Below are positions 3,892-50,012 of a stretch of 64,000 nt of DNA, piece by piece. Origin of the DNA: a virus. Location: positions 1-64,000 of the IMG/VR virus record IMGVR_UViG_3300045988_179268; one strand, given 5' to 3'. The notes beneath the pieces were generated by a model, which saw only the letters and a list, made by a program, of their open reading frames with translations, ran no database searches and had not been told where the DNA came from. The translations under genes and the position numbers were made by a program. The first letter of the stretch is position 1. The number at the start of each line of letters is the position of its first letter.

Positions 3892-3980
3892 GGTGTCGTG
3901 TCTGAGTGGCTGAAAGAGCCTCACTGCTAATGAGGTAGCGCTGTAAAAGGCGCTCGCAGGTTCGAATCCTGTCGGCACCG
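3892..3980 (+). tRNA. tRNA-Ser (anticodon GCT), type II
   Basis: Manual cloverleaf: acceptor GGTGTCG/CGGCACC, 3-bp D-stem, anticodon stem CCTCA/TGAGG, loop CTGCTAA, 5-bp long variable arm (AGCGC/GCGCT), T-arm GCAGG-TTCGAAT-CCTGT, discriminator G. Confidence 0.85.
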
Positions 3981-3986
3981 CTTTAT

Positions 3987-4554: not shown

Positions 4555-7500
4555 TTGAGAGGGACTTTCCTATTGGTTAATCCTATTGAGAAGGCTTTAC
4601 GATTTGGTGAACGCCGCGAAGAGAAGCGCGCCCAGAAACTAGTTGAAGCCATTGAACTTCTTGAGCCTATCTATGAAGACATGCCTGATGATGAGTTGCG
4701 TGCGCAGACCGATGAGTTTAAAGACCGAATCGCTAACGGTGAAGAGCTGGACACGATTCTTCCTGAGGCGTTTGCGGTTGTACGTGAGGCTTCTCACCGC
4801 GTACTAGGTAAACGCCAGTATCCTGTACAGCTATTGGGTGGTATTGCCTTGCATTTTGGGCAGGTAGCCGAAATGGGTACTGGTGAGGGCAAAGCTGTAA
4901 CCATCGACACGCTCATTCCCATGCCTGAGGGTGCCCGCCTCGCAGGAGACATCCATATTGGCGATACCGTGTATGCCGGTAATGGTGATTTAACTGTGGT
5001 TACAGGTGTTTTCCCTCAAGGTGAGCAGGACGTTTACCGTGTCTACTTCGAGGACGGCAGGTCTATTGATTGCAACCTTGAGCATCTTTGGGATGTATGT
5101 GACCAGTATGGGGTGTATGAGACAGTTGCCACTAGCCAGGTAATTGAGCGTCTACAGGCTGGCAATCTGGTCTTTATTCCCGCGCAGGGTGCTACAGCAT
5201 CTAAAAAGCCCGTCAGGGAGCATGTAACGCGCCTTCTGGACGATAATAATGCTTCAACCTCTCTTTACCTTGGTTGCTCCGAAAAGCCCTTAGAAGAGGA
5301 TTCTGGGGGTTCCTGGGCGCTACTGCGTAGTTTGATTGATTGTGGGGCTGTATTCACCACTATCGACCTTGAGGAAGTTTCTGCTGTTCATTACCAGTTG
5401 AATCTTGAGAAATACGAGGCATTGGAAGGCGCATATGACCTGGCTGAAATCCTAGATGACACAGTTCGCCCTGTCATGCCTTTCGGCTCCCAATACGTGC
5501 CGGGTTCTGAACAGCAGATTGAACAGCTCATCAAGCACGTTTCCACTTTACGTGTTTACGATAAGGTGACGGCTCATGCCTATTCAGAGGCGGCGGCGGA
5601 AGCTATTGCATGGGTTGCCCGGTCAATGGGCTGGTATGCCTGCATTGCGCCATCTCAGGGGTTCCTGCCCTGGGTTATCGACATTAATAAGAAGTCGAAG
5701 AAGAAGATTCAGGTTGTTGCAGTAGAGAGAATGGGGCGAACTGCCGAACAGGTCTGCTTCACTGTCTCTCACCCCACTCACCTATTCCTTGCTGGTGACC
5801 ATGTGGTGACCCACAACACCTTAACTGCTGTAGCGCCACTGTATCTTAACGCGCTTACTGGTAAGGGCGCGCATCTGGTCACTACTAACGACTACCTGGC
5901 GCGTGAGCAAGAGGAGCAGATGGGTCGAATCTATTCGTTCTTAGGGATGACTCACGGCGCTATTCAGGAGCAGATGTCTCCAAAGGAGCGTCAGGATATT
6001 TACTCGCGAGACATTGTTTATGGCACGAATAACCAGTTTGGCTTCGATTACCTGCGTGACAATATTGCAAAGAGTCCAGATGAGCTGGTTCAACGTGACT
6101 TGAACTATGTAATCATTGATGAGCTTGACTCTATCCTTATTGACGAAGCGGGCACACCACTCATTATTTCGGCCCCCGCTGGAGACACTTCCACGGCAGA
6201 GAAATGGTTTATGGCTAGTGCTGAAATTGTGGGCAACCTTAAACCCGATGTCCACTATGTTTTTGATTTAAAGAAGCGAACAGCCGAATTTCTAGACGCT
6301 GGATACGATGAGATTGAGAATCAGTTAGGCGGCAAGGAAAACGCGATTTTCAGTACGCATAGTGAACTACTGACATTCCTTAACGCCGCACTTAAAGCAG
6401 AAACGCTTTACACCCTAGACAAAGACTATATTGTCGTGGGTGACGAGGTGATGATTGTTGATGAGCATACTGGACGCGCGATGGAAGGTCGCCGGTACAG
6501 CCACGGTCTACACCAGGCGCTTGAAGCTAAAGAACGACGTAACGGCAAGTTTGAGGTTCAGATTCAGCCTGAAAACCCCACGGTGGCAACTATTACCTTG
6601 CAGAACTTCTTCCGCCTTTATGAGAAGATGTCTGGGATGACTGGTACGGCGGCTTCGGAGGCGGCTGAACTTGCAGACACCTACAACTTGACTGTACGCA
6701 CCATTCCACCGAACAAGGAGAAACAGCGCGTAGACCTTGAAGATGAAATTTACATCTCTGAGGCGAAAAAGTTTAAGGCTGTCGTCCAGGAAATTAAGGC
6801 TCTTCACGACGATTCTGAGGGCGAGTACACTACACCTGATGGGGAGAAGCGCCCCCTTGTACAGCCTATCCTTATTGGTACGACTAGCGTTGCCGCGTCT
6901 GAACGTTTATCTAGGATGCTGACTGCCGCTGGCATTAAGCATAATGTCCTTAATGCCAAGCATGTTGAACAGGAGGCGCATATCGTTGCGCAGGCAGGTC
7001 GTCTTGGGGCTGTCACCATTTCAACAAACATGGCTGGTCGTGGTACGGATATTCTTCTTGGTGGAAGCGCAGACATGCTTGTCGAGGAACAGATGCAAAT
7101 TATGGGACTTACCCCAGAGCATACGCCAACCGCTTACGAGGAACAACGTCACGCATTACAGCCTATTATGGACAGGAAAGTAGCTGAGGAAGCTGACTTG
7201 GTGCGTGAGCTTGGTGGCTTATACGTCATGGGTACAGCTAGACATGATTCTCGCCGTATTGATAATCAGCTTATTGGTCGTTCCGGTAGGCAGGGCGACC
7301 CCGGTCGTTCAAAGTTCTTCTTATCCTTGGAGGACGAACTGCTACGGTTCTACAGCCCCCGACAGGTGGCAGGTATTAGTCGCGTGATGGCTAAGACACC
7401 TGATGCGCCGCTGTCTGGCAAGATTCTGTCTAAAGCAATTGAGAATGCTCAGGCTTCTATCGACGGCAAGCATCGCGAAGGCAGGAAGAGTACTTTGGAG

Positions 7501-8079
7501 TATGATGACGTTCTCACGAAACAGCGTGAGAAGACGTACTCTGAGCGAAAGAAGCTTCTTCATGGAGATGCTGATTTTGTTCTTGACCAGGCTATCTGGT
7601 TTATTGAATGCGCCGTTTCGGAGGTTGTGGAACAATGGATTTCAGTTAATGGTGACCATCTGGACGACTGGGATTTGAAAGCCCTCTGGAGTCACCTTTA
7701 TGATGAGCTGGATTGGAAGCCGTCAATCACGGTGAAGGATGTTCTTGATGAATATCCTACTACCACGGAGCTTACTCGTGAAGTCCTCGTGAAGGAGCTT
7801 GTCTCTGCCGCTGTACAGCAGTGGGATGTTCGAGTGGAGTCTGGGCGAGAGGTTGCCGCTTCTTTCGCTAGGCAGGCGGCTTTAACTGCAATTGATGAAG
7901 AGTGGATTGCGCATCTGGCAGAGCTGGATTACCTCAAAGAAGGTATCGGCATGAGGGCGTATGCACAGAAAGACCCGAAGGTAGAATATCGCCTTGAAGC
8001 GGGCGACATGTATAACCAAATGAATACTGTTTTTGTAAAGAGAACCTTTACGAAAATTGTGCTTGGCGTTAAGCGCTAA
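4555..8079 (+). CDS. secA: preprotein translocase ATPase SecA, interrupted by an in-frame intein
   Basis: Collinear with bacterial SecA: AEMGTGEGK...TLTAVAPLYLNALTGKGAHLVTTNDYLA, VIIDELDSILIDEAGTPLIIS, TGMTGTA, TISTNMAGRGTDI, GRSGRQGDPG. TTG start at 4555 is assumed. No C-terminal zinc-binding tail. Confidence 0.93.
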   Translation: MRGTFLLVNPIEKALRFGERREEKRAQKLVEAIELLEPIYEDMPDDELRAQTDEFKDRIANGEELDTILPEAFAVVREASHRVLGKRQYPVQLLGGIALHFGQVAEMGTGEGKAVTIDTLIPMPEGARLAGDIHIGDTVYAGNGDLTVVTGVFPQGEQDVYRVYFEDGRSIDCNLEHLWDVCDQYGVYETVATSQVIERLQAGNLVFIPAQGATASKKPVREHVTRLLDDNNASTSLYLGCSEKPLEEDSGGSWALLRSLIDCGAVFTTIDLEEVSAVHYQLNLEKYEALEGAYDLAEILDDTVRPVMPFGSQYVPGSEQQIEQLIKHVSTLRVYDKVTAHAYSEAAAEAIAWVARSMGWYACIAPSQGFLPWVIDINKKSKKKIQVVAVERMGRTAEQVCFTVSHPTHLFLAGDHVVTHNTLTAVAPLYLNALTGKGAHLVTTNDYLAREQEEQMGRIYSFLGMTHGAIQEQMSPKERQDIYSRDIVYGTNNQFGFDYLRDNIAKSPDELVQRDLNYVIIDELDSILIDEAGTPLIISAPAGDTSTAEKWFMASAEIVGNLKPDVHYVFDLKKRTAEFLDAGYDEIENQLGGKENAIFSTHSELLTFLNAALKAETLYTLDKDYIVVGDEVMIVDEHTGRAMEGRRYSHGLHQALEAKERRNGKFEVQIQPENPTVATITLQNFFRLYEKMSGMTGTAASEAAELADTYNLTVRTIPPNKEKQRVDLEDEIYISEAKKFKAVVQEIKALHDDSEGEYTTPDGEKRPLVQPILIGTTSVAASERLSRMLTAAGIKHNVLNAKHVEQEAHIVAQAGRLGAVTISTNMAGRGTDILLGGSADMLVEEQMQIMGLTPEHTPTAYEEQRHALQPIMDRKVAEEADLVRELGGLYVMGTARHDSRRIDNQLIGRSGRQGDPGRSKFFLSLEDELLRFYSPRQVAGISRVMAKTPDAPLSGKILSKAIENAQASIDGKHREGRKSTLEYDDVLTKQREKTYSERKKLLHGDADFVLDQAIWFIECAVSEVVEQWISVNGDHLDDWDLKALWSHLYDELDWKPSITVKDVLDEYPTTTELTREVLVKELVSAAVQQWDVRVESGREVAASFARQAALTAIDEEWIAHLAELDYLKEGIGMRAYAQKDPKVEYRLEAGDMYNQMNTVFVKRTFTKIVLGVKR
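4894..5817 (+). mobile_element. intein (308 aa) in the SecA Walker-A loop; class-3-like with degenerate LAGLIDADG core
   Basis: Inserted between GEGK and TLTAV. Starts with Ala and ends VVTHN, followed by Thr +1. Block B is NLEHLW, block F QVCFTV. LLRSLIDCGA is LAGLIDADG-like. Confidence 0.85.
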
Positions 8080-8202: not shown

Positions 8203-9279
8203 ATGCCATCCACCACATGCACCGAGTGTGGCGGGGATTTGTCTTCTCTGATTATTGACCCTGATTGCGAGACTTGCTACAAGCGCCACCGTAGGATGTA
8301 TCGCCGTGGGCTAGTTAGCGATTATCCGGCAACTACAGCTTACCGTGATGCATTAGGGTCTAACTGCCCTTGCGGGACTGGTCACCTTGACCTGAATATG
8401 GGATGTAAAGCGTGCCAGTATCGTCACTACTGGTGGTATCTTCAAGGGTACGATTTTTCTTTATGGGTAGCTTACAGGGAGCAACGAACTGAGTATGCCT
8501 GTATGGAATGCCCCACTATCAATGAATCTGTCCCAACTCCCGGATGTTTAGGGTGCTATGAACGCATGGTCAATACTGGTATGTATAAAGTATGCCGTGC
8601 ATCAATGAAGGATATGCTTAACTATGCTGGCGGGCGTGGCGCAACTGTGGATGTTTGTAACGTCTGTTGTGCCCCCGCAACATTGTTCACCCCCGGTTGC
8701 GTTGCATGTGTGCGGGCGCATCAGACCATTGGTGAAGGCGGCAGGACACACACCCCTAAAATGATGTACATCATGAATTTACGTATCCGTTCTTTGGGCA
8801 TTGAAGTATTTCTGACCGACAAGCTTGCACCGCTTGAAGTCGAAGCTCACCCTTATAAGCCCCCACGTAGGGCTGACTCTTCGTGTGGCGAATGCGGCGG
8901 CAACGTTACACACTTCACCAAAGGGTGCGCCGCCTGCGAAGCTTATCACAGTAAGCGGTGGCGCGCAGGGAAACCTACTGCATATGCTGAGTACCTTACG
9001 TACAAAAACCTTGTCGAATCTGTTCATACTACGTGTGGTGGCGTTACAGATGATGGTCGAACTTGTCCAGCGCCGCTACATCTTTATATGCCGCATTGCA
9101 AAGAATGTAAAGCTCGGTGGAAACTATTGGCTAACGCCCCCAAAAAGACACTTCGTGAGAGAGGTGTGCCTGAATATCCAACCCCGGAACATGCAGTAAT
9201 TTTTTCGTTGCAATATAGGAACGCGGTAGAGTCGAAGGCTTGGTCGAAGATTCAGAATTTCCCCTCTACAGCGCGATAG
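8203..9279 (+). CDS. cysteine-rich protein with six tandem CxxC...CxxC zinc-ribbon-like repeats
   Basis: 358 aa with SD AAAGGAG. Repeats include CTECGG..DCETCYKRH, CPCGTG..GCKACQYRH, CMECPT..GCLGCYERM, CNVCCA..GCVACVRAH, CGECGG..GCAACEAYH and CGG..CPAP..HCKECKARW. Confidence 0.65.
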   Translation: MPSTTCTECGGDLSSLIIDPDCETCYKRHRRMYRRGLVSDYPATTAYRDALGSNCPCGTGHLDLNMGCKACQYRHYWWYLQGYDFSLWVAYREQRTEYACMECPTINESVPTPGCLGCYERMVNTGMYKVCRASMKDMLNYAGGRGATVDVCNVCCAPATLFTPGCVACVRAHQTIGEGGRTHTPKMMYIMNLRIRSLGIEVFLTDKLAPLEVEAHPYKPPRRADSSCGECGGNVTHFTKGCAACEAYHSKRWRAGKPTAYAEYLTYKNLVESVHTTCGGVTDDGRTCPAPLHLYMPHCKECKARWKLLANAPKKTLRERGVPEYPTPEHAVIFSLQYRNAVESKAWSKIQNFPSTAR

Positions 9280-10341: not shown

Positions 10342-13300
10342 ATGAAGAATAAAAAGTTCTTTGCAATGGCATTGGCAACAGCCTCCCTCATGCCTTCCAC
10401 TTTTGCCTCTGCCGCAACCGTAGGCTCAAACCCGTGGGATAGCCATCATGGCGAAACCGCACCCACCAAGACCGTTAGCACCAGTAACGGTAAGCCGTGC
10501 CTCGTCACCGGGTACCGACTCGTGCCCCTGGATGAAAACGGCAACACTGTAAACGGTTTCTGTTTCAACAATGCTGACCCCACCCACGAAGTACTAGCAC
10601 CCTACGCCCCCGTAGACACCAATAAGACCACTGAACACCTCCATAAGGTTGAGGATACTGGCATGTGGGGCTCCGGTCAGCAGGTAGCACGCGATACCTT
10701 TGCCTACCAGAAGCTACCCGATAATACGCCCGTGCTGGATAATAGCCAGAACATCAATTCCCAGCACCTCGTGTACTCACGCACTATCAATAAGTGGCTG
10801 ACCGCTGAGAATGTGAACCGGGGCGGTGCTGGTCAGGAACTTATTCCCACCCTCACTGTCGATTCCTCTAACCCTAACCAGGAATATGTAGAGGTCGTAT
10901 CGCGTGATAACCGCGCCCTCACCAATGAAGCGACCCGCCGCCTCACTATGGGTTCTCGCCCTATGTCCCTGTGGTACCTAAAGCATCCGAATCCTTCCGG
11001 CGACAAGTCCTTGGCGACTTATGACGTGGCTACTGGTCTGTGGACTTCCATGTTCCACGTCATGCAGGATGCACCCGCACAGACCTACAGCACTACGGCG
11101 ACTATCAAGATGTCCGAAGACGGCACCGTCCCAAATGTTGAGAAGTGGATGGGCGCTAAGGACGAGTCCGCCCGCAAGAAGGTGAACTACGACACCGCGT
11201 ACTTCACTAACGCGCCCGTAGAAGGCAAGGCGCAGACAGTGGATGCACAGAGCGCTCAGCTACAGGCTGTACCTAGCACAAACACTACCGCTAAGGACGG
11301 TCTAACCCCGGTCTACACCCCGAACAACCACGTGTCCCCCTATTCTGCTGGCGATACTATCACGGTGCAAGCATATTCTCGTGACCTCAAGTTTGACCGT
11401 GATATGCGCTATCCTATCGGGCGCGGTCAGACTTTCCGCCTCGTGAATCCTGTTGAAGGTGTTTCCATTGACGCGCACACTGGCGCTATCACCGCTACTC
11501 GTGCGGCTGTAGAGAAGGCGGGTGGCACTCTGAATGTTCAGATTGAAGCAGACTGGACACCCGTCATTAAGTACTCTTCGGGTGGCTACATTCCCGCTAA
11601 GCCCAACTTTGGCGGCATGGGTGAAAACAACTACTGGCTGAACCTTATTTCTGGCACTTCATCTGTTGTGGGTATGGCTAATGAGAATACCCAGATTGGC
11701 ATTGATGAGCTTCGTAGCGGCAAGATTAACCATGCCCTGTCGGTGACTTTCCCGAACTACCAGCGCGGCGCGTCTTTCCCAGCGAAAATGGCAGACGGCA
11801 ATATCGACACCACCAAGTACCCGGAAGCTCCGCACGCCGGTCAGCGTTGGCGTTTGCCTAAGAACTTTGACACCGATGGCTACTTGCGCTCCATTGACAA
11901 GACCGACGACGCTATTCTGCGTATGCAGATTGAAGCCGCTAAGGAATACGGCGGCATCGTCACAGACCGCAACCTCGCAACGATTGCTTTCAACTTCGAG
12001 TCGGGCTGGTCTTACGCGCCTGCCGCACGTGAAGGCAAGAATATCTATACCGATGAGACTGTCGAAAATGGCTGGTTGAAGAAAATGTTCGACAAGCACA
12101 CCGGCGGCAACGCCGCGTTCCCGTGGCAGGCTGTCCAGTGGATGCCTGTGAACTACGCCGAGCTTCCTGCTGGCTCTCAGGGCAAGCAAAACACGCTTGT
12201 GAACTACGCGGCTGACGCTATTCCTGGCGATTTGTCTGTCCAAACATATTTGCCTGACCGTGTACATGAGAACGGCTACGTGGGTCACACCACCCATACT
12301 GGTCGTGACGTGCGCACCTACACCGTGACCAACGCGTTCTGGGTGCAGAACTTGCTGGCTGATTTCATGGAGACACCGGGCTTCTCAAACACGACCCAGA
12401 GCGATAACGGTGTAGTACAGTTTGAGGAGCTGGGTATCACGATTACCCCGACCCGTGAAGGCGTGTCTACCCCTCTGCACCTGGTGACTGAGAATCTACG
12501 CAAGTCCAAGGATTACCTCGCTTACGAAAAGTTGGAGGATAAGTCTCAGTGGACGGGTGTAACCGTACCTGAGCTTGACCACACCAAGTCCGTTATCCGC
12601 CAGGCTGGGCAGGAAGACGTGCCTGTCCTTAACGCGAAGACTAAAAAGTGGTATTTCCAGGATAAAGACCCGAGCTTCAAGTCTCGCGCTATCCCATACA
12701 CCGTCGGTGGCGTTCAGGAAGCTAACCCTCTAGCGGCTTCTGATTACCCGCGCCTCAAGACTGGCACCACCCAGATTGTGGACGTACTGGCTAATGATTC
12801 TACCAATTTTGGTAATAACAACGGCATGACCCTCACAGGTGTTAAGCTGTACAACGCCAACGGTGAAGAGGTCACCCAGTACGATAACGGCATGGCAACC
12901 TACCGTGTTGTGGACGTGCCTGGAAAGAATCGCCAGGGTATCGAGATTACCACCAAGACTAAGGAGGGTTTCGCGCCAACCTTATCCTACTCGGCTGTAC
13001 GCTCGGACGGCACCGTATCTGCTAAGGGCGCTGTTACCTTGCTGATTGGTTCTACTACCGGCAAGGCGATGGCTCTAGCGAATACCTCTAGCGAGAAGGG
13101 CGAATCTGCTACCCAGCCCGCAAACCCCGACCAGGTGGTTACTGAGAAGGGCGAGCCTGAAGTTGCCGAGAATCCCGAGTTTACGGGTGGCGCTAATGGT
13201 GAGCCTGCTGTTAATGAGGTTCCTGAGTATCAGGGCGGCGCTAACGCGGTAGAGGCTGACTCTAATACGAAGGGCGACTTTACCGGCGGCGTGAATGGTG

Positions 13301-13674
13301 TTGAGCCCGCTGTTCGTGAGAATGACCCTGAATATAAGGGTGGCGCTAATGGTGAGCCTGCGACTGCTGAACCGAAGGGTGAAGCTACCGTACCGGCACC
13401 GTCTGTTGCACCTACTGACACTAATGTTGGTGTGGGTGGTACTTCTAATGATTCTACCCCCGTGGCACCTGCTACGGTACCTACTGAGCCGGGTAAGCCT
13501 GAACAGCCTGAATCTGCCAAGCCGGAAGAGCCGGGTAAGCTAGTAGAGGTTAAGACTGGTCACGGGCATTCTTCTCAGGCAGGTATTTTAGGTGTCTTTG
13601 GAGCAGTGTTTGCGGCGCTAGTTGCTGGAGTGGTTTCTATGCGACCTAAGACAGAGGTTCGTGACCACGAGTAG
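10342..13674 (+). CDS. large secreted surface protein with C-terminal EVKTG sorting signal
   Basis: Signal peptide MKNKKFFAMALATASLMPSTFASA. Central conserved-looking block: INHALSVTFP..PAKMADG..GQRWRLP..YGGIVTD. C-terminus is EVKTG (13546-13560), then a hydrophobic helix and a basic tail. Confidence 0.8.
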   Translation: MKNKKFFAMALATASLMPSTFASAATVGSNPWDSHHGETAPTKTVSTSNGKPCLVTGYRLVPLDENGNTVNGFCFNNADPTHEVLAPYAPVDTNKTTEHLHKVEDTGMWGSGQQVARDTFAYQKLPDNTPVLDNSQNINSQHLVYSRTINKWLTAENVNRGGAGQELIPTLTVDSSNPNQEYVEVVSRDNRALTNEATRRLTMGSRPMSLWYLKHPNPSGDKSLATYDVATGLWTSMFHVMQDAPAQTYSTTATIKMSEDGTVPNVEKWMGAKDESARKKVNYDTAYFTNAPVEGKAQTVDAQSAQLQAVPSTNTTAKDGLTPVYTPNNHVSPYSAGDTITVQAYSRDLKFDRDMRYPIGRGQTFRLVNPVEGVSIDAHTGAITATRAAVEKAGGTLNVQIEADWTPVIKYSSGGYIPAKPNFGGMGENNYWLNLISGTSSVVGMANENTQIGIDELRSGKINHALSVTFPNYQRGASFPAKMADGNIDTTKYPEAPHAGQRWRLPKNFDTDGYLRSIDKTDDAILRMQIEAAKEYGGIVTDRNLATIAFNFESGWSYAPAAREGKNIYTDETVENGWLKKMFDKHTGGNAAFPWQAVQWMPVNYAELPAGSQGKQNTLVNYAADAIPGDLSVQTYLPDRVHENGYVGHTTHTGRDVRTYTVTNAFWVQNLLADFMETPGFSNTTQSDNGVVQFEELGITITPTREGVSTPLHLVTENLRKSKDYLAYEKLEDKSQWTGVTVPELDHTKSVIRQAGQEDVPVLNAKTKKWYFQDKDPSFKSRAIPYTVGGVQEANPLAASDYPRLKTGTTQIVDVLANDSTNFGNNNGMTLTGVKLYNANGEEVTQYDNGMATYRVVDVPGKNRQGIEITTKTKEGFAPTLSYSAVRSDGTVSAKGAVTLLIGSTTGKAMALANTSSEKGESATQPANPDQVVTEKGEPEVAENPEFTGGANGEPAVNEVPEYQGGANAVEADSNTKGDFTGGVNGVEPAVRENDPEYKGGANGEPATAEPKGEATVPAPSVAPTDTNVGVGGTSNDSTPVAPATVPTEPGKPEQPESAKPEEPGKLVEVKTGHGHSSQAGILGVFGAVFAALVAGVVSMRPKTEVRDHE
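13171..13365 (+). repeat. tandem peptide repeats PE[FY]xGG[AV]NG (four copies)
   Basis: NPEFTGGANGEPA / VPEYQGGANAVEA / GDFTGGVNGVEPA / DPEYKGGANGEPA near the C-terminus of the 10342 protein. Coordinates are approximate. Confidence 0.7.
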
Positions 13675-13707
13675 AGAATGAGTGTGCGCATTCTTTCTTT
13701 AGGGTGT

Positions 13708-13763
13708 TAATATTGTAAAGCACGCCGCCTTTCCTTATGAGGGTGGCGTGCTTTACAATATTA
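13708..13763 (+). terminator. stem-loop terminator
   Basis: 22-bp stem taatattgtaaagcacgccgcc / ggtggcgtgctttacaatatta with one G-U pair. Confidence 0.7.
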
Positions 13764-13771
13764 GAAATATG

Positions 13772-13780
13772 TGATACACT
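13772..13780 (+). promoter_or_regulatory. extended -10 promoter
   Basis: TGaTACACT directly after the terminator. The leader contains TTTTATTCACT. Confidence 0.5.
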
Positions 13781-13830
13781 ACGTATCGTTCAGTTTTATT
13801 CACTAATTCTTAATTAAAGGAGCATTAACC

Positions 13831-14028
13831 TTGAAAACTGTCCGCGATATTTATTACTCACTGCGTGCGCGGGTGGCGCGTGCTGACCGCAACGCCGCTT
13901 TTACCGCCAGTCGCCCTGACCCTGTGCGCGCCCTTGCTCGTAACTCTGTTTGGTCTTCTCAGCGAAGGGTCCCAATCAGAGTAGACGCGACAGGCAACCT
14001 GCCCTGGGCAGACTATCCCACTCGGTAA
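13831..14028 (+). CDS. small basic hypothetical protein
   Basis: 65-aa ORF with TTG start 8 nt after SD AAAGGAG. Arg-rich. Confidence 0.4.
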   Translation: MKTVRDIYYSLRARVARADRNAAFTASRPDPVRALARNSVWSSQRRVPIRVDATGNLPWADYPTR

Positions 14029-14072
14029 GCCTTTTTCATTTTTAACACCAATTACAGTAAGGACACACTATC

Positions 14073-14216
14073 TTGAATATTGTAACGAATACTACCCATA
14101 ACTCCGATTCTAACTACGGCATTAATTTCATGAGGGGCGCGCTGATTGCTCTACCTATTTCTGCCGCGTTCTGGGGCGCACTTGCTCTCGTCCTTCATGC
14201 AGTTGGAATTGTTTAA
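14073..14216 (+). CDS. possible small membrane protein (47 aa, below the ORF-track cutoff)
   Basis: TTG start after AAGGA. Translation LNIVTNTTHNSDSNYGINFMRGALIALPISAAFWGALALVLHAVGIV contains one transmembrane helix. Confidence 0.3.
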   Translation: MNIVTNTTHNSDSNYGINFMRGALIALPISAAFWGALALVLHAVGIV

Positions 14217-14250
14217 CCTTTACCTATAGAGAATTGCAATACACACAATA

Positions 14251-14850
14251 ATGTACGTTACAGCATACGAAAGTATTCAGCCTATTTTTTGGCTTATCCC
14301 CCTCAGTATTCTAGGGGTATTACTACTACTGTTTATCTTCATTGAACTTATCTTCATCTCTCTGCCTGGCAAGGATGCCGACGGTAACAGGGCTAGTGTT
14401 ACGCTTAAGGAACTGATGGTACGCACGCAGGAGAAGTCTCTTGCCACATTCGGAACCTTAGCCGTTATTGTCCTGTCCGCTGTTGGGTGGATTTGGTGGA
14501 GCGACTATAACGACAGGTCAGTAGAGCTTTCCTCTAGCATCACGGAGCACACTACGGTATCGGAAGACCAGTTGCGTCAGTGGCGTGGGGATGAGATTGG
14601 GATGAATCTTGTATATTCCCATACCACTAAAGAGGGGACACCTGTCTTTAAAGATTTCGGTAATCCTGCTAAGCATGTTTATCGTCAGTGCCCGTTAATT
14701 TTGACGGACGAACAGAAGGGTGAGCCTTCCATTTGGGGCTCACGAGAAGTCAAAGTCAAAATTACGCCTCGATGCACAAACGTTACAACTGACGGAGAGA
14801 ATGTGCCTATCACTACACCAAAACCAGCCCCTTCTACTAGCCGCAAGTGA
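14251..14850 (+). CDS. membrane-anchored hypothetical protein
   Basis: 199 aa with two N-terminal hydrophobic helices followed by a soluble domain. No motif recognised. Confidence 0.5.
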   Translation: MYVTAYESIQPIFWLIPLSILGVLLLLFIFIELIFISLPGKDADGNRASVTLKELMVRTQEKSLATFGTLAVIVLSAVGWIWWSDYNDRSVELSSSITEHTTVSEDQLRQWRGDEIGMNLVYSHTTKEGTPVFKDFGNPAKHVYRQCPLILTDEQKGEPSIWGSREVKVKITPRCTNVTTDGENVPITTPKPAPSTSRK

Positions 14851-14908
14851 CCTTGCTATATTGTGTATGTGAACTTAAGCCTTTTTAGGTTGCTCTCCTC
14901 ATAGTGGA

Positions 14909-14967
14909 GCCGCCCAGCTATGCTTCTACCTCATGTTGAGGTGGTTTAGTGGTACTGGGCGGCTTTT
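14909..14967 (+). terminator. intrinsic terminator
   Basis: gccgcccag / ctgggcggc stem enclosing an inner hairpin, followed by TTTT. Confidence 0.55.
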
Positions 14968-15033
14968 AACGCACATAAAAGGGGAAGATATTTAAAATTC
15001 AAGAAGACGTTAAATTGAAAACAGGATTAAAAT

Positions 15034-16548
15034 ATGCAATGCTACCACATCTCACCTAATGGGCGTTCCAACTCGTGTAAGGGGAGGGACGTTTGCGCGT
15101 ACAGGCACCTTAATGACGGTAATGGTGTCCCTCATTATGATACTAGGGCTGAGGCTGATGAGGCGGCTGAGAGAATTTCTGCCGAAGCTGTCCTTAAGGG
15201 TAAGGTTCCAGCTGAACGTTCAACTTTAACTAAGGAGCAGGTGTCCCTCATTCCAGAGCATGATGCCGCCGCGTATGCCGCTGATAGTCATGCCCGCATT
15301 GATTACGCTGTTATGAAGAATGAGCCTGTTGATAAGCTGTATGCGGATGATACTGCCACCTCTGTATCGGAGCCCACTTATGTTTCAACAACGCCTTTAG
15401 AGTTGTGGGAAAATGTAGAAACCACAACTATTATGGGTATTGCTAAAGTTGGTCAGGCGGGGTTAGGTTCATCTTCTTCTGCGAATGTGGAGAGGGCAAA
15501 AAGTATATTTGATGCGCATAAGCGTGATAAGACAAATAGTCAGACGACGGCGGCAGTTGTTGCCGCTGACAAGAAGTACCCTTCGTATGAGCAGTTAGCA
15601 AAGCATAAATCTCAATATCTTAAACGCATTAAGGGTATTGGTGAGGAGCGGTATATTGGTTATGCAAACACCGCATATAGTCATTATATTTACAACCATA
15701 ACAAGGCTTTAGCACGGCAAACTGGCGTACTTCTAGAGCGACTTATGACAGCTTCCCACTTACCGGAATCATTGCGGTCGTCATATGCTCTTGATGAGGA
15801 TACGCAGGTCGCTATTCGTCAGGCTGTAGCATCTGCTTTGCAGAACCACCCTGAATATCAGGTTTGGCTTCAATCCAACGAGACAGATGTTGATGAGGAT
15901 GGGGTGGCTTACCCGCGTACTGCGCAACAGATGCGTGAGCTATTGGATGCGTGTTCATCGAAGCCGACAGAGTTTGGGTATCTTATTATCAACCCGAACC
16001 TTAATAACGTTGGAACGTCCACGCCTGAGCTTGAGGAACTTCTTATTGTTGCTGAGACTTTCCCTCCTGAAAGAACGCCTCGGCAGATGGTTATTGCGCA
16101 AGCACCAGCCCGCAATGAGGAATTGAAAGAGGACATTAAGGCACTAGAGTGGAATGACATTATTTCCCATAGTTACATGAGCATGGCGGAGCAGGAGCGT
16201 CGCCGTAAATTTACGTCTTCCAGTTACGCCCATTACCATAATGAGATGTTCCGTGATTTGGGGGAGCGTGAAGCTCTTCGCAATATTGCGCCTGGCGACA
16301 TTGTTTGCCGCCCTAACCACAGCACGGGTGGTCAGCAGTATGCTGTGGTGCTAGAGACAACTGAGGACGGAGTTCTCTACCAGACCGTCGCATCGTATAA
16401 CTCTGACAACTCGCCGGTTTTGTCTAACGCAGATAGGGCACTTGGTTTGTATCGTGCTGGCGCTAGTAAAACAGAAACCCCTATAGGGTTTACCGCATAT
16501 CCTGATACTATCGCTGTTGAAGATTACGAGGGATGGGTTGCATGGTAG
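15034..16548 (+). CDS. hypothetical protein with N-terminal Cys/His module
   Basis: 504 aa. The N-terminus MQCYHISPNGRSNSCKGRDVCAYRH..PHYDTRAEADEAAE is shared with the ORF at 21189. Confidence 0.6.
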   Translation: MQCYHISPNGRSNSCKGRDVCAYRHLNDGNGVPHYDTRAEADEAAERISAEAVLKGKVPAERSTLTKEQVSLIPEHDAAAYAADSHARIDYAVMKNEPVDKLYADDTATSVSEPTYVSTTPLELWENVETTTIMGIAKVGQAGLGSSSSANVERAKSIFDAHKRDKTNSQTTAAVVAADKKYPSYEQLAKHKSQYLKRIKGIGEERYIGYANTAYSHYIYNHNKALARQTGVLLERLMTASHLPESLRSSYALDEDTQVAIRQAVASALQNHPEYQVWLQSNETDVDEDGVAYPRTAQQMRELLDACSSKPTEFGYLIINPNLNNVGTSTPELEELLIVAETFPPERTPRQMVIAQAPARNEELKEDIKALEWNDIISHSYMSMAEQERRRKFTSSSYAHYHNEMFRDLGEREALRNIAPGDIVCRPNHSTGGQQYAVVLETTEDGVLYQTVASYNSDNSPVLSNADRALGLYRAGASKTETPIGFTAYPDTIAVEDYEGWVAW

Positions 16549-20014: not shown

Positions 20015-20100
20015 GACGGTGTGGCTGAATGGATTAGGCGGCAGTCTGCAAAACTGTTACACCCCTAGCGGGTATGCGGGTTCAAATCCCGTCACCGTCT
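20015..20100 (+). tRNA. type-II (long variable arm) tRNA with GCA (Cys) anticodon
   Basis: Manual cloverleaf: acceptor GACGGTG/CACCGTC, 3-bp D-stem, anticodon stem GCAGT/ACTGT, loop CTGCAAA, 18-nt variable region with ACCC/GGGT stem, T-arm GCGGG-TTCAAAT-CCCGT, discriminator T. Confidence 0.7.
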
Positions 20101-20105
20101 CAAAT

Positions 20106-20150
20106 ACAGAAGAAGCCCCAACCTGAAATTCAGGTTGGGGCTTCTTCTGT
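20106..20150. terminator. bidirectional stem-loop terminator
   Basis: Perfect 20-bp stem acagaagaagccccaacctg / caggttggggcttcttctgt between the tRNA (+) and pspA (-). Confidence 0.75.
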
Positions 20151-20217
20151 CACACCTTTGCGGGTAACAGCCTTTTTACCTATAGATTATGCATCGTTGG
20201 GTGACATGAAAGAACGC

Positions 20218-20943
20218 TTACGCCTTTGCCTGCTTAGCCTTCAAAGCGGCGAGGCGGTCATCAAGCTCAGCGTCACGCTTGATGGCTTCCAAGTCATTGA
20301 ACTGGTCGTTAATGTTGGAAGTTGCGAGTTCCTGCTGACCCATAGCGTATGCTTCTTCGCGGCGCACCTTCTCCTCGATGCTTGCCATTGCGGAGGTTGC
20401 GTCAAGAGTGGTGATGTTCTTGCTTGCCTCTGCCATGATGGTCTGTGCCTGAGCGGTCTTGCGGCGTGCGTTCAGTTCGTCACGCTTCTCCTTGACTTCC
20501 TCAAGCTTTGCGCGCATCTTGTCCAGACCGTCGCGAAGAACCGCTACGTTGTCACGCTGGGACTGAATCTGCGGAGCGTCAGTCTCGTTGCGCTTTTCAA
20601 GCTTCAACTGGTTACCAAGCGCGGTCTTTGCGAGGTTGTCATACTTGTCGGCGTTGGCTACATCACCTTCGGCGCGGAACTTGTCTGCCGCATTGGATGC
20701 GGCGAGTGCCTTGTCGCCCCATTCGATTGCTTCCTGCGCGCGGGTGTCGTAGTCCTTCTCTGCAAGTCGGAGGGTGCCGATAAGCTGTGCTACAGCGGCT
20801 TCTGCTTCACGAATGTTGTTGGTGTAGTCGCGGATAAGCTGGTCCAGCATCTTCTGAGGGTCTTCTGCCTTGTCAAGTAGTGCGTGGATGTTAGCCTTTG
20901 CGAGGTCTGCAACGCGGGTGAAGATGGTTACCTTCTGTGCCAT
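20218..20943 (-). CDS. pspA: PspA/IM30 family (phage shock protein A-like) membrane-stress protein
   Basis: MAQKVTIFTRVADLAKANIHALLDKAEDPQKMLDQLIRDY... is typical of the PspA N-terminus. The protein is an all-helical coiled coil of about 240 aa. Start set at the second ATG (20943), preceded by AAAGGTG. Confidence 0.85.
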   Translation of the reverse strand: MAQKVTIFTRVADLAKANIHALLDKAEDPQKMLDQLIRDYTNNIREAEAAVAQLIGTLRLAEKDYDTRAQEAIEWGDKALAASNAADKFRAEGDVANADKYDNLAKTALGNQLKLEKRNETDAPQIQSQRDNVAVLRDGLDKMRAKLEEVKEKRDELNARRKTAQAQTIMAEASKNITTLDATSAMASIEEKVRREEAYAMGQQELATSNINDQFNDLEAIKRDAELDDRLAALKAKQAKA

Positions 20944-37122: not shown

Positions 37123-37956
37123 TTATGCTACTGGTTCTGCTACCACCACATGATTATCAGTGTAAGTCCAGGTGCCATTTTTATAGGTTCCGTGGCACGT
37201 CGCCATGATAAGTTTGCGGGAGCCGTTCTTATCGGTCACGTCCCACCATTTGCTCAAATCGACCTGTGGGACTTTAGGCTCAATACGGGTTACTTTCCAT
37301 GTAGTCATAATTCCGTTCTCGTCCGTGGTGTAGACTGTATTTCCGCGTTCGCAGGCGACAATGGCACTCATGGGGGCGGGGACACCATTTGCCCAGTTTA
37401 CGTGACCCACTAGCAATGTCGTCCCTTTGTTGCTGGTCAGTGGCGCTGAGTCGGTGTAAACGCCGATTCTGTATGTTACAGGGATATTGATTTCTGTCCT
37501 GCCCGTTGTGGGGTTGTCAGTCCCTCCCGTGTATTGGAGTCCAGCGTTAAACCCTACATCTGGGATTCGGATAGTCATAGGGTTGATATTGTTCCAGTCT
37601 AGGTTTTTAGGTTGCTGACCCAATCCGGGGGTTGTATCCTCGGGCATATGGTCGATGCTATCAATATCGCCGCTTGTCTCTGCATGGTAATTTGGGGAGG
37701 CGGTGGTGGCAGTAGTATCGGTAGTAGGTTGTGATGGGGTTGGGGTAATTGAGGCGTTCCCGCTGTTTGACTGCTGAATTTCTGCAATTTGCGAAGCGCT
37801 GGGTGCATTGAATGATTCTGCTTGACGATTCACGTTCTCACGGTTTACTGAGTCAAAGTAGTATCCTGCACCGCCACCTAATGCGCTTGCGGCGGCAACT
37901 ACACCAACACCCTTCAATACATCGCGGCGGCTAGTCTTTTTCTGATTATCGGTCAT
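37123..37956 (-). CDS. sortase-like cysteine transpeptidase (class E/F-like) with twin-arginine signal-anchor
   Basis: N-terminus TSRRDVLKGVGVVAAASALGG. MTIRIPDVGFNAGLQ resembles the sortase PxxLxIPxxG strand. His motif TLLVGHVNW, Cys motif LIMATCHG. No Arg occurs in the 23 residues after the Cys (HGTYKNGTWTYTDNHVVVAEPVA). Confidence 0.7.
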   Translation of the reverse strand: MTDNQKKTSRRDVLKGVGVVAAASALGGGAGYYFDSVNRENVNRQAESFNAPSASQIAEIQQSNSGNASITPTPSQPTTDTTATTASPNYHAETSGDIDSIDHMPEDTTPGLGQQPKNLDWNNINPMTIRIPDVGFNAGLQYTGGTDNPTTGRTEINIPVTYRIGVYTDSAPLTSNKGTTLLVGHVNWANGVPAPMSAIVACERGNTVYTTDENGIMTTWKVTRIEPKVPQVDLSKWWDVTDKNGSRKLIMATCHGTYKNGTWTYTDNHVVVAEPVA

Positions 37957-38719: not shown

Positions 38720-39406
38720 ATGTCGCTCAGCAAGTCTCACATGAATAATGCGGATAGGATGGCTTCTATCCGTTCGTCAGCTGTTTCTGCGCCGCCGCCA
38801 CCAGATACGGAGCATGTTAAGCCACAAGGTAAGACTAGAAGGTTCCCGAGGCTTGTAACGGGTCTATTTGTCGGCATGTTAGTGGTGGCGGGTGCTGGGT
38901 ATGGTGCTTATAAAAGCGGCGTAACACCTGATACGCTCATAAGTAAAGTTTCGCCTACAGTCACCCAGTATCGTGTTGCGGGTGATTCAATGTTGCCCAC
39001 CTTTCAGGACGGGCAGATTCTTCTTTTTGAGAACCCACAGTCGGAACCTATTAATCGTGGCGATATTGTCGTCGCAGAAATGCCTGCCGTATGGCAATAT
39101 GCCAGCGCTACGCAGGGTGTCGTGGTGAAGAGGGTCGCCGCCGCTGAGGGAGACACGGTTTCTGTTATCGCGGGCGCTGTTCATGTAAATGGCGAACAAA
39201 TCACCCCTGTTCAGCCTACTTGCCAAGCAGATGAATATCAGCGTGTCCTTGGTGCTGGTGAGCTTTTTGTACTAGGCGACAATCGTTCCAATTCCCTAGA
39301 CTCTCTTAGTGTTCTCTGTACAGGTAAGGTTGAGGCAGATGCAGATGTACTTGTTCACACTTCCGCCGTTAAAGCCCACGGGAAAACTCCTGTTGTGAAA
39401 GGTTAG
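38720..39406 (+). CDS. lepB: signal peptidase I (S26 family)
   Basis: N-terminal TM anchor. GDSMLPTF (catalytic Ser), VVKRVAAAEGD (catalytic Lys box) and VLGDNRSNSLDS. Confidence 0.85.
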   Translation: MSLSKSHMNNADRMASIRSSAVSAPPPPDTEHVKPQGKTRRFPRLVTGLFVGMLVVAGAGYGAYKSGVTPDTLISKVSPTVTQYRVAGDSMLPTFQDGQILLFENPQSEPINRGDIVVAEMPAVWQYASATQGVVVKRVAAAEGDTVSVIAGAVHVNGEQITPVQPTCQADEYQRVLGAGELFVLGDNRSNSLDSLSVLCTGKVEADADVLVHTSAVKAHGKTPVVKG

Positions 39407-47249: not shown

Positions 47250-48761
47250 TTGATTTCTCCTGAATCATTCGTGAACCTACATACCCACTCAACGTACTCG
47301 ACGTTGGATGGGTTTTCTAGCGTTAGTGAGTACATTAGTCGTGCCGTAGAGGTTGGACAGACCGCTTTAGGTATCACTGACCACGGCAATATGCATGGGA
47401 TTTATGAGCTAATTACTGGGTGCCAGAAAGCTGGGATTACACCTGTTCCAGGTTGCGAGTTTTATGTTGCGCCGCTGAATCCTGATGGTGCTAAGGTTCA
47501 GTCACCCGTTTACTATGGTGAGCCTGGCGCTGATGGTGATGTTTCAGGTAGAGGCAATTATTTGCATTTAACGATGTGGGCTGTCAATGATGAGGGTCTA
47601 CGTAACATGTTTGAGTTGCAGATGTTGGCTTCTTCCCCGGAGCATAAACGTGCAGGGTACCCACGTATTGATTTAGATATGATGCGTGAACATTCCGCAG
47701 GTGTTGTTGTCTCGACGGGCTGTCCGTCAGGTGAGATTTCCACCCGATTCCGCTTAGGTCAAGATGCTGAGGCATATAAGTATGCCGAAACTCTGGTTAG
47801 TATCTATGGGAAAGATAACGTGTTTGTCGAAGTTATGAACCATAACATGACTTCTGACCTTGAACGCGATTTGCTGATGAAGCAGATTAAACTGGCTGAG
47901 ACGCTAGGGTTAAGACTTTTAGCTACGAATGATTGCCATTATGCGCATCATTCTGATGCCCCGCATCATGAGGAGATGCTGGCTATTGGTACTGGTTCCA
48001 CTATGAATGATTTGCCTAAGGAACAAGGTGGGCGAAGGTTCTGCTTTGACGGTGACCAGTATTTCTTGAAGACTGCTGAACAGATGTTAGAGCTTTTCCC
48101 TGAGGATGTTTACCCTGGTGCTGTAACAAATACAGCAGTTCTGGCAGATATGGTGGAGGATTTCTCATTATTTGAGTACAGGTCTGACTTGCGACCCATC
48201 CCGCATATTCCAGCTGACGAAACAGAGGAAAGTTATCTGCGTAGAGTTGTCACGTCTCTTGCGTATGAGCAGTTCCACGATGATGAGGTGAAGTATCGGG
48301 CTGTACTTGATAGGGCGGCTAAAGAGCTTGATGTTCTAGCGTCAGCGAACTATTGCGGTTACATGCTTATTGTTGCTGAGTACGTGAATTGGTTCAGGGA
48401 TAGTTTCAGTGTTCGTAACAGCTCAGGCGACGTTGTGATGAGTGCTGTTGGTATTGCTCGTGGCTCGGCGGGCGGCTCTATTGTTGCTTATTTGTTGGGT
48501 ATTACAGATATTGACCCTATCGAGTACGGGTTGTTTTTTGAGCGTTTCATTTCGGCGGGACGTGTAGACCAGGCTGAAATTTCGGTAGGTGATGGCGCGT
48601 CTGTCGTCCTTCCAGTCTCGGAGAAGGTCAAAGTTCTTACCGAAGATGGGGTTGAGGTTGAGAAGTATATTCACCAGGTAGCAGAAGGTGACTGGGTTTT
48701 GGTTGAACCTGATACGCCTATCGGCAATATTTTTAGCAGTCCCGTTCCGGCTGAGGTCTAG
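47250..48761 (+). CDS. dnaE: DNA polymerase III alpha (DnaE), N-terminal fragment (PHP domain to start of palm)
   Basis: FVNLHTHSTYSTLDG, GITDHGNMHG, ATNDCHY, ..YLLGITDIDPIEYGLFFERFISAGRV, then a 64-aa non-DnaE tail (48567-48758) and a stop codon. Confidence 0.85.
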   Translation: MISPESFVNLHTHSTYSTLDGFSSVSEYISRAVEVGQTALGITDHGNMHGIYELITGCQKAGITPVPGCEFYVAPLNPDGAKVQSPVYYGEPGADGDVSGRGNYLHLTMWAVNDEGLRNMFELQMLASSPEHKRAGYPRIDLDMMREHSAGVVVSTGCPSGEISTRFRLGQDAEAYKYAETLVSIYGKDNVFVEVMNHNMTSDLERDLLMKQIKLAETLGLRLLATNDCHYAHHSDAPHHEEMLAIGTGSTMNDLPKEQGGRRFCFDGDQYFLKTAEQMLELFPEDVYPGAVTNTAVLADMVEDFSLFEYRSDLRPIPHIPADETEESYLRRVVTSLAYEQFHDDEVKYRAVLDRAAKELDVLASANYCGYMLIVAEYVNWFRDSFSVRNSSGDVVMSAVGIARGSAGGSIVAYLLGITDIDPIEYGLFFERFISAGRVDQAEISVGDGASVVLPVSEKVKVLTEDGVEVEKYIHQVAEGDWVLVEPDTPIGNIFSSPVPAEV

Positions 48762-48782: not shown

Positions 48783-50012
48783 ATGAGTGAAGAAGTTGTA
48801 GAAGAAGTTGCTGTTTCAGTTGTTGAGGAGGCAGATTCCGTTGAGCCTACTCAAGCTCAGCCCACAGAGTACGTTGAGTTTCACAGGAAATATCAGCCGC
48901 GTGTCTGGGATGACTTTATTGGGCAGGAGCATATTGTTGCGCCGTTAAAGCGTGACATTATCGAGAACCGCCGTGTCCAGGGTCGCCTATTTCGTGGCGC
49001 GGCTGGAACTGGTAAGTCTAGCATGGTGAAGGTTTTCACTAAGGCGATGAATTGTGAGGGTCGCCCTGCTGATTCTGCTGACCCGTGCCTTGTGTGTGAT
49101 TCGTGTGTCCGTTTTGATGCGGAGGAGAATGGCGGAATGTATTATTTCGTTGGTTCCGTCACAAGTGGTGTAGATGATGTTCGTGCTATCGTTAATGCTG
49201 GTCGTGTTAAGCAGATGATGAAAGCGCCATACATCATTATGGATGAGTGTCACGCTCTGTCGAAGTTTGCCTGGGATGCGTTTTTGGCATACCTGGAAAA
49301 TAAGGACGACATGGATAGTGTTCCTATTATTTTCTGTACCACGGAGGCGGGCGGCATTAAAGCCTCTATTTCAACCCGTGTCCAAGAGTATAAGTTCAGG
49401 AATATCCCTGTCCCTGTTTTGGAGCAGTATGTTAAGGATATTGCTAGGCGTGAGGGTGTGGAAATCACCGACAATGGTGCTTCTTGGTGTGCTCGTGCCG
49501 CCCAGGGTTCAGCCCGTGGCGCGCTAAAGCGTTTAGAAGAGTATCTGCGTAACCCTGACCTTTACTCTGTTGATGAGTCATTCGCCACAGTCCTCATGAG
49601 AGAGTTCATCCTTGGCGATGTACCTAAGCTTCATAAAGCTTTGGAGTCCGTCAAGCAGATTGACTCAGCCTTACGTGACGGCACAGAGCTTGCGATGAAC
49701 CAGCTGAGGCATTACATTGCGCGGCAGAATAAGGCTACGGTCAGTCTAGGAGATTTGCCTTTTGCCGACTTACCTAAGCAGAACGTAGGTTTGTCTATGA
49801 TGGAGCAGAATCTACCGTCTGATAAGGCAATGAAAGTACTTAAACTTATGGCAGAGACTTTCCACGGATTCTGGAATACTACCGACGAGAATATTATCTT
49901 CGAAATTCTTTGGCTAGACCTTACGGTAAGGATGCATGAACTGCTGGAAGATAGGCGCGCGAAGCAAAAAGAGCTTGAGCTACATCAGAATAATTCACAG
50001 GGGCGGAAGTAA
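48783..50012 (+). CDS. DnaX-like AAA+ clamp-loader ATPase (gamma/tau-like)
   Basis: FIGQEHIV, Walker A FRGAAGTGKSS, Zn module NCEG..PCLVCDSC, Walker B IIMDECHALS, sensor-1 FCTTE, SRC-like STRVQEYKF and GSARGAL. Confidence 0.8.
   Translation: MSEEVVEEVAVSVVEEADSVEPTQAQPTEYVEFHRKYQPRVWDDFIGQEHIVAPLKRDIIENRRVQGRLFRGAAGTGKSSMVKVFTKAMNCEGRPADSADPCLVCDSCVRFDAEENGGMYYFVGSVTSGVDDVRAIVNAGRVKQMMKAPYIIMDECHALSKFAWDAFLAYLENKDDMDSVPIIFCTTEAGGIKASISTRVQEYKFRNIPVPVLEQYVKDIARREGVEITDNGASWCARAAQGSARGALKRLEEYLRNPDLYSVDESFATVLMREFILGDVPKLHKALESVKQIDSALRDGTELAMNQLRHYIARQNKATVSLGDLPFADLPKQNVGLSMMEQNLPSDKAMKVLKLMAETFHGFWNTTDENIIFEILWLDLTVRMHELLEDRRAKQKELELHQNNSQGRK

Follow-up and report, generated by a model that had tools for sequence, protein, structure and literature searches.

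Class 3 inteins are defined by a Trp-Cys-Thr (WCT) triplet at positions B:12, F:4 and G:5 (PMC2807308, whose block numbering is followed here). The founding member, in the DnaB protein of mycobacteriophage Bethlehem (MP-Be DnaB), is a full-length intein with an endonuclease domain, starts with Pro, is followed by Thr at position +1 and resides on an actinobacterial mobile genetic element (PMC2807308). The mycobacterial DnaB inteins Msm DnaBi1 (PDB entries 6bs8 and 6own) and M. chimaera DnaB-1 (MchDnaB1; 6rix and 6riy) are mini-inteins with a short linker, begin with Ala, are followed by Ser at +1 and are placed in an ATPase P-loop directly after Gly-Lys. The class 1 intein gp41-1 (6qaz), a naturally split, cyanophage-like mini-intein in a helicase, has also been fitted with the WCT residues (6riz), which resulted mainly in cleavage and almost no splicing (PMC7664689). 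A 2025 survey of actinobacteriophages described class 3 inteins with splicing and LAGLIDADG domains, some of them degraded, in four host proteins only, with SecA and translocases going unmentioned, and proposed insertion at nucleotide-binding sites as the route between host proteins. Here we describe a SecA gene with a 308-residue insert in its Walker A motif, located in nucleotides 1 to 64,000 of the IMG/VR virus record IMGVR_UViG_3300045988_179268 (this whole stretch is termed the window). Nucleotides 4894–5817 very probably encode a functional class 3 intein that is inherited vertically and has ceased to be mobile, in an accessory SecA borne by a large genetic element.

The precursor gene and its parts are arranged as follows.

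4573–8079 (+), SecA precursor gene, 1168 codons plus stop, uninterrupted
4573–4893 (+), N-extein, 107 residues, ending AEMGTGEGK, the first part of Walker A (Lys codon AAA at 4891–4893)
4894–5817 (+), class 3 intein, 308 residues from Ala1 to Asn308 (AVTIDT...HVVTHN), without stops
5818–8079 (+), C-extein, opening with Thr+1 (ACC at 5818–5820) and completing Walker A with TL after GEGK; Walker B (IIDELDS) lies within it, as do the preprotein-binding, NBD2 and wing/scaffold domains, and it ends at the stop codon TAA at 8077–8079

The mechanically called open reading frame (ORF) that represents SecA, 4555–8079 (+), opens at TTG 4555. TTG 4573 is the probable true start, with GAGAGGG at 4557–4563 lying eight bases ahead of it and homologues beginning MVNPIEK. 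The NCBIfam models PRK12904 (939 bits, cut-off 814) and TIGR00963 (897 bits, cut-off 800) both recognize the protein, the SecA2 models all stay under their cut-offs, and the four Pfam domains SecA_DEAD, SecA_PP_bind, P-loop_SecA and SecA_SW are present in the ORF. The SecA_DEAD match is split, ending ahead of the insert and restarting at profile position 104. The insert separates Lys from Thr in the Walker A sequence GEGKT, and its excision restores the exact motif, because the nearest intein-less SecAs (from Rothia and Flaviflexus, ~50% identical) carry an uninterrupted GEGKTL. In the intein-less form the insertion site reads GGTGAGGGCAAA followed by ACCTTAACT, also written as GGTACTGGTGAGGGCAAA followed by ACCTTAACTGCTGTA. 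An earlier interpretation made without database searches (the sequence-only reading) had proposed that 308 residues at 4894–5817 split the Walker A loop of SecA and that their removal gives a canonical P-loop; its coordinates are correct to the base, and the intein-less SecAs agree with the restored loop.

An exhaustive phmmer search with the insert as the query against 1.84 billion representative proteins gave 8,176 matches at E ≤ 1e-3 and 1,561 at E ≤ 1e-10. Within the best 150 of the 8,176 matches, residues 1–100 and 265–308 match paired intein lobes in 115 proteins, often two per protein, and 134 complete relatives were drawn from this set. The first residue is Ala in 84 of the 134, and the end is Thr-His-Asn in 132. 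The +1 position is occupied by Thr in 111 relatives and by Ser in 19, and no fewer than 92 directly follow the Gly-Lys of a P-loop. A profile alignment of these relatives reveals His at B:10 (134/134), Trp at B:12 (132/134), Cys at F:4 (127 of 127 aligned), Thr at G:5 (125/126) and the terminal His-Asn (126/126) to be nearly or fully invariant. The significant PDB sequence matches are inteins only, with E values from 1.8e-9 to 4.3e-5.

6riz, gp41-1 with C1A, F65W and D107C, E 1.8e-9
6bs8/6own, class 3 Msm DnaBi1, E 3.3e-7
6qaz, wild-type gp41-1, E 5e-7
6rix, class 3 MchDnaB-1, E 1.7e-5
6riy, class 3 MchDnaB-1 (N145AA), E 4.3e-5

A word-indexed search recovered a single relative of the insert, and scans of IMG/VR and GTDB genomes found distant inteins only (27–53% identity) and no close SecA relative. 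When a class 3 profile was run against the six-frame translation of the window, the SecA intein was the only match.

The splicing domain is built from two lobes of the Hint fold, in which the catalytic residues can be assigned.

4894–5184 (+), N-terminal Hint lobe, residues 1–97, blocks A and B, pLDDT 93–98
5056–5097 (+), block B, GRSIDCNLEHLWDV, with Asn61 at B:7, His64 at B:10 and Trp66 at B:12
5698–5817 (+), C-terminal Hint lobe, residues 269–308, blocks F and G, EQVCFTVSHPTHLFLAGDHVVTHN

Position 1 is Ala (GCT, 4894–4896), i.e. it lacks a Cys, Ser or Thr nucleophile. His64 is encoded at 5083–5085 and Trp66 at 5089–5091; Cys288 (F:4, 5755–5757) lies within EQVCFTV, and Thr306 (G:5), His307 and Asn308 occupy 5809–5817. 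Residues 3–68 align to gp41-1 and residues 1–75 to Msm DnaBi1, and the C-terminal lobe aligns to VRCVEV...PTHN of Msm DnaBi1 and ELICIEV...LTHN of the WCT variant of gp41-1. Ala1 falls on Ala1 of Msm DnaBi1; Trp66, Cys288 and Thr306 align to Trp67, Cys118/124 and Thr137/143 of Msm DnaBi1/MchDnaB1; and Ala1, Trp66 and Cys288 align on the engineered C1A, F65W and D107C of 6riz. A further cysteine, Cys60 (B:6, window positions 5071–5073), is invariant in the eight SecA inteins aligned, common in the wider family and present in gp41-1.

An AlphaFold2 model of the intein, computed from a 20-sequence alignment, has a pLDDT of 90.5 and a pTM of 0.87. When it is compared with the PDB by Foldseek, full-length LAGLIDADG inteins come first (PI-SceI, TliVMA and PhoVMA; E ~4e-9), the class 3 mini-inteins 6bs8 and 6rix reach target-normalized TM scores of 0.80–0.83, and the 34 chains at E ≤ 1e-3, among the matches listed, are inteins or Hint domains throughout. 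Homology, family signature and predicted fold thus together support the assignment of the insert as a class 3 (WCT) intein. The sequence-only reading had named Ala1, the block B His and Trp, the block F Cys, the Thr-His-Asn end and Thr+1, all of which stand where it put them, and had taken the W-C-T residues as a class 3 signature, which is upheld by the homology to Msm DnaBi1 and MchDnaB1, the near-invariance in relatives and the modelled Hint fold. The absence of a Hint-fold match, which would have spoken against it, is the opposite of what was found: the confident model superposes on intein structures.

With Msm DnaBi1 and MchDnaB1 the SecA intein has in common Ala1, the block B pattern xxxH-x-W, the block F Cys, Thr-His-Asn followed by a hydroxyl residue, and the position in a P-loop directly after Gly-Lys. 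It differs from both in its host (SecA, not DnaB), in Thr instead of Ser at +1, in Asn instead of Asp at block B position 7 and in keeping a 170-residue central domain, and the redox partner Cys48 of Msm DnaBi1 (PMC6195587) has no cysteine counterpart in it. Judged by published block positions rather than by direct alignment, it resembles MP-Be DnaB in the WCT residues at B:12, F:4 and G:5, in Thr+1, in having no N-terminal nucleophile (Pro there, Ala here), in its full length and in its location on an element of actinobacterial affinities, and differs from it in the extein (PMC2807308). The best PDB matches, gp41-1 and its WCT variant, are ~40% identical over residues 3–68 and share PQG...Y.V...DG..I.C..EHL[WF] and the C-terminal LF.A.D..THN; natural gp41-1, however, has Cys1, and Phe and Asp where the SecA intein has Trp66 and Cys288. 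By structure and insertion site the SecA intein is thus closest to the mycobacterial DnaB-1 inteins, and by sequence it is equally close to gp41-1.

The mechanism proposed here is modelled on the MP-Be DnaB and Msm DnaBi1 inteins, the class 3 mechanism having been established by experiment for homologues (PMC2807308, PMC6195587). The SecA precursor would be translated with its nucleotide-binding loop interrupted and, as follows from this anatomy, should be inactive until spliced, neither binding nor hydrolysing ATP. With Ala1 providing no N-terminal nucleophile, Cys288, aided by His64 and positioned by Trp66, would attack the Lys(-1)-Ala1 bond to form a thioester-branched intermediate, from which the N-extein would be transferred to the hydroxyl of Thr+1. 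Asn308 would then cyclize with the help of His307 and release the intein, and an O-to-N shift would yield mature SecA with the GEGKTL loop intact. The N-terminal junction could instead be attacked directly by Thr+1, as in class 2 inteins, Cys288 merely positioning or activating. Ala1 is common to class 2 inteins (KlbA), the scissile bond in the MP-Be DnaB model lies 5.2 Å from Thr+1 compared with 4.9 Å from the block F Cys (PMC2807308), and the WCT graft on gp41-1 did not bring about class 3 splicing, so that the motif by itself does not establish the route. On the other hand, MP-Be DnaB cannot do without its block F Cys and its branched intermediate, which is labile to thiols, has been demonstrated, and among inteins with Ala1 it is the KlbA inteins, the class 2 examples known, that stand outside the WCT group (PMC2807308); the SecA intein is, moreover, homologous to proven class 3 inteins in a family whose aligned members all possess Cys at F:4. 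A class 2-like route is accordingly considered very unlikely. Class 3 splicing is the reading we prefer, and mechanistically the SecA intein is a textbook case of it and not a new mechanism.

When the spliced SecA is used as the query, a distinct clade of SecAs of 1,163–1,183 residues is retrieved, with extein identities of 95, 88, 73, 69, 67 and 62%. All seven SecA lineages of this clade carry an intein at the same place, and they agree without exception in Ala1, His64, Trp66, Cys288, Thr306, His307, Asn308 and Thr+1. No intein-free allele was found within the clade, the next relatives (~50% identity) being ordinary intein-less actinobacterial SecAs. Across the clade the identities of the N-terminal Hint lobe (93, 70, 63, 59, 57 and 48%) run beside those of the exteins in the order given above; the divergence of the intein therefore parallels that of its host protein, as in vertical inheritance. 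Comparing the codons of the window SecA with those of its closest relative (contig L015) gave the following dN/dS values.

N-extein, 0.026
C-extein, 0.049
N-terminal splicing lobe, 0.080
Central domain, 0.083
C-terminal splicing lobe, 0.052

We infer from these values that the intein splices, with Cys288 as the likely nucleophile, because a SecA with a permanently broken P-loop would not stay so constrained. The converse would be a splicing-dead relic: either a SecA pseudogene, or a SecA that operates with 308 extra residues permanently in its P-loop or that serves a purpose other than ATP-driven export. Such a relic would accord with an in-frame TAG in the SecA of a related contig (L013/L014) and with an Arthrobacter class-3-like intein reported to be a pseudogene (PMC3196547). 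The Arthrobacter intein, however, has Asp instead of Cys (WDT; PMC2807308), the window ORF is open over all of its codons with every SecA domain above the curated thresholds, the exteins are under strong constraint (dN/dS 0.03–0.05) and the eight catalytic and junction residues persist down to 62% identity; a relic is therefore highly improbable, and a functional intein remains the preferred interpretation. As to the TAG, it occupies positions 3754–3756 of L013 (and is also present in L014), where the window and the other relatives have CAG (Gln), and owing to it gene calling divides the L013 SecA into two ORFs (447 and 719 residues). For this single case a nonsense mutation, an error in sequencing and an amber codon read as Gln are all conceivable.

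The central domain separates the two splicing lobes.

5185–5697 (+), residues 98–268, putative degenerate LAGLIDADG-type homing-endonuclease remnant, recognized by alignment with relatives positive for LAGLIDADG_3/Hom_end

The first motif of related inteins (PYxLGxLLGDG) aligns with NNASTSLYLGCS, LLGDG being opposite SLYLG, and the position of the catalytic Asp is Leu or Val in all seven SecA lineages. Opposite the second motif (LLQGLMDTDGS) stand EQLIKHVS and a gap of four residues, with LMDTDG facing LIKHVS. Neither motif-aligned position holds an acidic residue in any of the seven clade members. The domain has no Pfam LAGLIDADG_3 or Hom_end match at E ≤ 1, whereas the aligned domains of related inteins match LAGLIDADG_3 in four of six cases and Hom_end in five of six. 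Modelled alone (pLDDT 86.8), its second half displays the canonical helix-hairpin-helix-hairpin order and its first half is eroded, without a clear first helix and one hairpin. I-Tsp061I, I-DmoI and WhiA, which are LAGLIDADG folds, are its best Foldseek neighbours in the PDB, at E 0.02–0.06 and TM ~0.3; hhalign aligns it with relatives over the second half only (E 4e-4, probability 35%), and a central-domain profile run against PDB sequences gave nothing meaningful. The domain is 28–49% identical to its relatives, compared with 57–76% for the Hint lobes, and its dN with L013 is 0.44, compared with 0.17–0.23 for the splicing lobes; at long range it thus diverges two to three times faster than the lobes and in the closest pair it is equally constrained. 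The sequence-only reading had pointed to LLRSLIDCGA as a LAGLIDADG-like motif. The motif is present, at intein residues 144–153, but is not the catalytic LAGLIDADG helix: it forms the second helix of the first half-domain, with counterparts in AIAWVARSMGW of the second half and in the LLRSLGY-type helix of relatives. Its suggestion of a decaying endonuclease holds in that the domain is degenerate and the acidic residues are gone, and fails in that the domain is not decaying freely, given its low dN/dS against L015. We read the domain as LAGLIDADG-derived and as retained in spite of lost catalysis, perhaps for folding, splicing competence or a secondary role.

In the model favoured here, the central domain would be an endonuclease remnant without catalytic acidic residues, and the intein would therefore no longer home and be fixed in its SecA lineage. 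Five further SecAs (P0033, P0060, P0081, P0102 and P0119) carry class-3-type inteins of 211–352 residues at the identical site, and at least six distinct SecA lineages with class-3-type inteins exist in public metagenomes. The contigs consulted for three of the five look element-like, with a Rep3 initiator, NrdD with a NUMOD1 gene, GmrSD and SLH/Rib surface proteins. In a neighbour-joining tree of splicing lobes, 12 SecA inteins fall in a clade of 26 of the 131 tips, with no clean SecA clade; this tree is crude and thus cannot decide between one and several invasions of SecA. A profile of SecA-intein junctions was swamped by short SecA fragments and retrieved no named intein-bearing SecAs. An active endonuclease with non-canonical catalytic residues, still spreading among SecA genes, would explain the full size of the central domain and the purifying selection on it in the closest pair, as well as the finding that no fewer than five other SecAs, distantly related and borne by elements, harbour class-3-like inteins in precisely this position; two of these have weak, sub-threshold LAGLIDADG_3 matches, one with Hom_end above its cut-off as well. 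This proposal has to contend with the loss of acidic residues at both motif positions throughout the clade, the joint divergence of intein and extein, as in vertical descent, and the lack of an intein-free allele in the clade, and we regard continued mobility as most unlikely; the immobile, vertically inherited intein is preferred. On the contig of P0081 (L017), the anaerobic ribonucleotide reductase NrdD lies in two pieces around a NUMOD1-containing ORF at 13149–16443, an intron or free-standing homing-endonuclease arrangement, and a Rep3 initiator gene is located at the contig end.

Several points weigh against this preferred interpretation of a functional but immobile class 3 intein. The unproductive gp41-1 graft implies that WCT residues alone are no proof of class 3 splicing. 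The LAGLIDADG assignment draws on weak scores (hhalign 35%, Foldseek E 0.02), and the presumed loss of endonuclease activity is read from an alignment of a poorly conserved region. The purifying selection on the central domain (dN/dS 0.083) fits a domain that is still needed better than it fits plain decay. Finally, scans with Pfam and NCBIfam detected no intein or endonuclease family in the insert at E ≤ 1, which we take as a failure of the models and not as evidence against an intein.

Post-translational control of export by splicing is a matter of speculation. Since the SecA is an extra copy borne by the element, any such control would concern the element's own export pathway. Conditional splicing has been documented for the class 3 intein Msm DnaBi1 (PMC6195587), and class 3 DnaB splicing is reported to be reversibly blocked by oxidants and zinc (PMC6195587; PMC7360933, PMC8557812). 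It is conceivable, though unlikely, that the SecA intein is kept as a switch dependent on the state of its cysteines (Cys288 and Cys60), by which redox conditions or metals gate the element's export line of SecA, signal peptidase, sortase and adhesins. In that case the endonuclease domain, constrained though catalytically dead, would act as a sensor or binding module, and selection, not only P-loop homing, would account for class 3 inteins recurring at this one position in unrelated SecAs of such elements.

No SecA intein was found in the literature, in line with the remark of the sequence-only reading that no class 3 SecA intein had been described; this is provisional, the library consulted being incomplete. 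In a tblastn search of annotated phages and plasmids, the SecA matches extended over the exteins alone (at most 76% of the query) and none was to a SecA with an intein, and megablast of the SecA gene against INPHARED phages gave no match. Many of the 'phage' SecA matches look like host contigs. With the window intein, SecA, the motor of the general secretion pathway, joins the list of intein host proteins. Insertion after the Walker A Gly-Lys is the micro-site of most relatives in helicases and other ATPases, and this common site supports P-loops as a route for intein jumps between unrelated proteins. Curated models miss the SecA inteins, and pipelines will therefore annotate plain SecA. If splicing holds true, the SecA intein, a naturally occurring class 3 intein of full length located between Lys-1 and Thr+1 in a compact loop, would be useful for comparisons of mechanism and for engineering, and it would make splicing-gated protein export directly testable.

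The SecA is an accessory copy on an extrachromosomal or phage-like element of ~300–370 kb and not a housekeeping SecA; because of its gene context it is assigned to the element's own secretion and surface-display toolkit. Other genes of the window are listed below.

37123–37956 (−), sortase
38720–39406, signal peptidase I
58620–59819 (−), RecA
2754–2825, tRNA-Gly (CCC)
3892–3981, tRNA-Ser (GCT)
20015–20101, tRNA-Cys (GCA)
Cell-wall hydrolases: a GH25-LGFP-NlpC/P60 protein and a second NlpC/P60 protein
Surface and membrane genes: adhesin-like giants and two CAAX-protease-like proteins
DNA genes: C-5 DNA methylase, RecD/Dda-like helicase, FtsK-like protein and PD-(D/E)XK nuclease
A deoxynucleotide monophosphate kinase domain

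The tRNA genes are scattered among the element genes, and the predicted tRNA-Cys overlaps the start of the mechanical ORF 20074–20880. Many large ORFs of the window belong to no Pfam or PHROG family, and no virion genes were seen in its 64 kb. The G+C content is 49%, and actinobacterial affinities are indicated by the LGFP repeats and by the nearest SecAs, those of Rothia and Flaviflexus. Syntenic relatives are found on contigs of 145–367 kb (L011, L015 and L016), and the element family is abundant in public metagenomes, with SecA clusters of 128–296 member sequences. In its gene repertoire the element resembles the Inocles, giant extrachromosomal elements of the oral microbiome with a size of a few hundred kb (PMC12340149), with which it shares DNA polymerase III alpha, a RecD-like helicase, signal peptidase, sortase, LPXTG or adhesin-like surface proteins and cell-wall enzymes. 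The Inocles have 24–32% G+C and Streptococcus affinities, and SecA and inteins are unmentioned in PMC12340149; identity of the element with one of the named Inocle taxa was rejected on the difference in G+C.

The DnaE (polymerase III alpha) of the window is encoded in two ORFs, 47250–48761 and 50016–52730, with a clamp-loader-like AAA gene (48783–50012) between them. The former contains the PHP domain and NTPase positions 2–104 and ends with ~55 extra, beta-rich residues; the latter contains NTPase positions 100–260, the finger domain and HHH, with ~25 extra residues before PPDIDTDF. A split intein at this break was considered and ruled out: the tails lack a Cys/Ser start, a His-Asn end and the WCT residues, and the class 3 profile matched nothing in the window but the SecA intein. 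Directly downstream of SecA, ORF 8203–9279 (358 residues) is very rich in paired cysteines in CxxC...CxxC repeats (e.g. CTECGG...CETCYKRH) and has no Pfam family; an ORF of similar size (358–402 residues), likewise without a Pfam family, follows SecA at the syntenic loci L011 and L015. Absent from the window, a Cas12f1-like TnpB (PF07282) lies within a few kb of SecA in some relatives (L013/L014, 134–1747; L016, 1–257), indicating insertion-sequence traffic in these elements.

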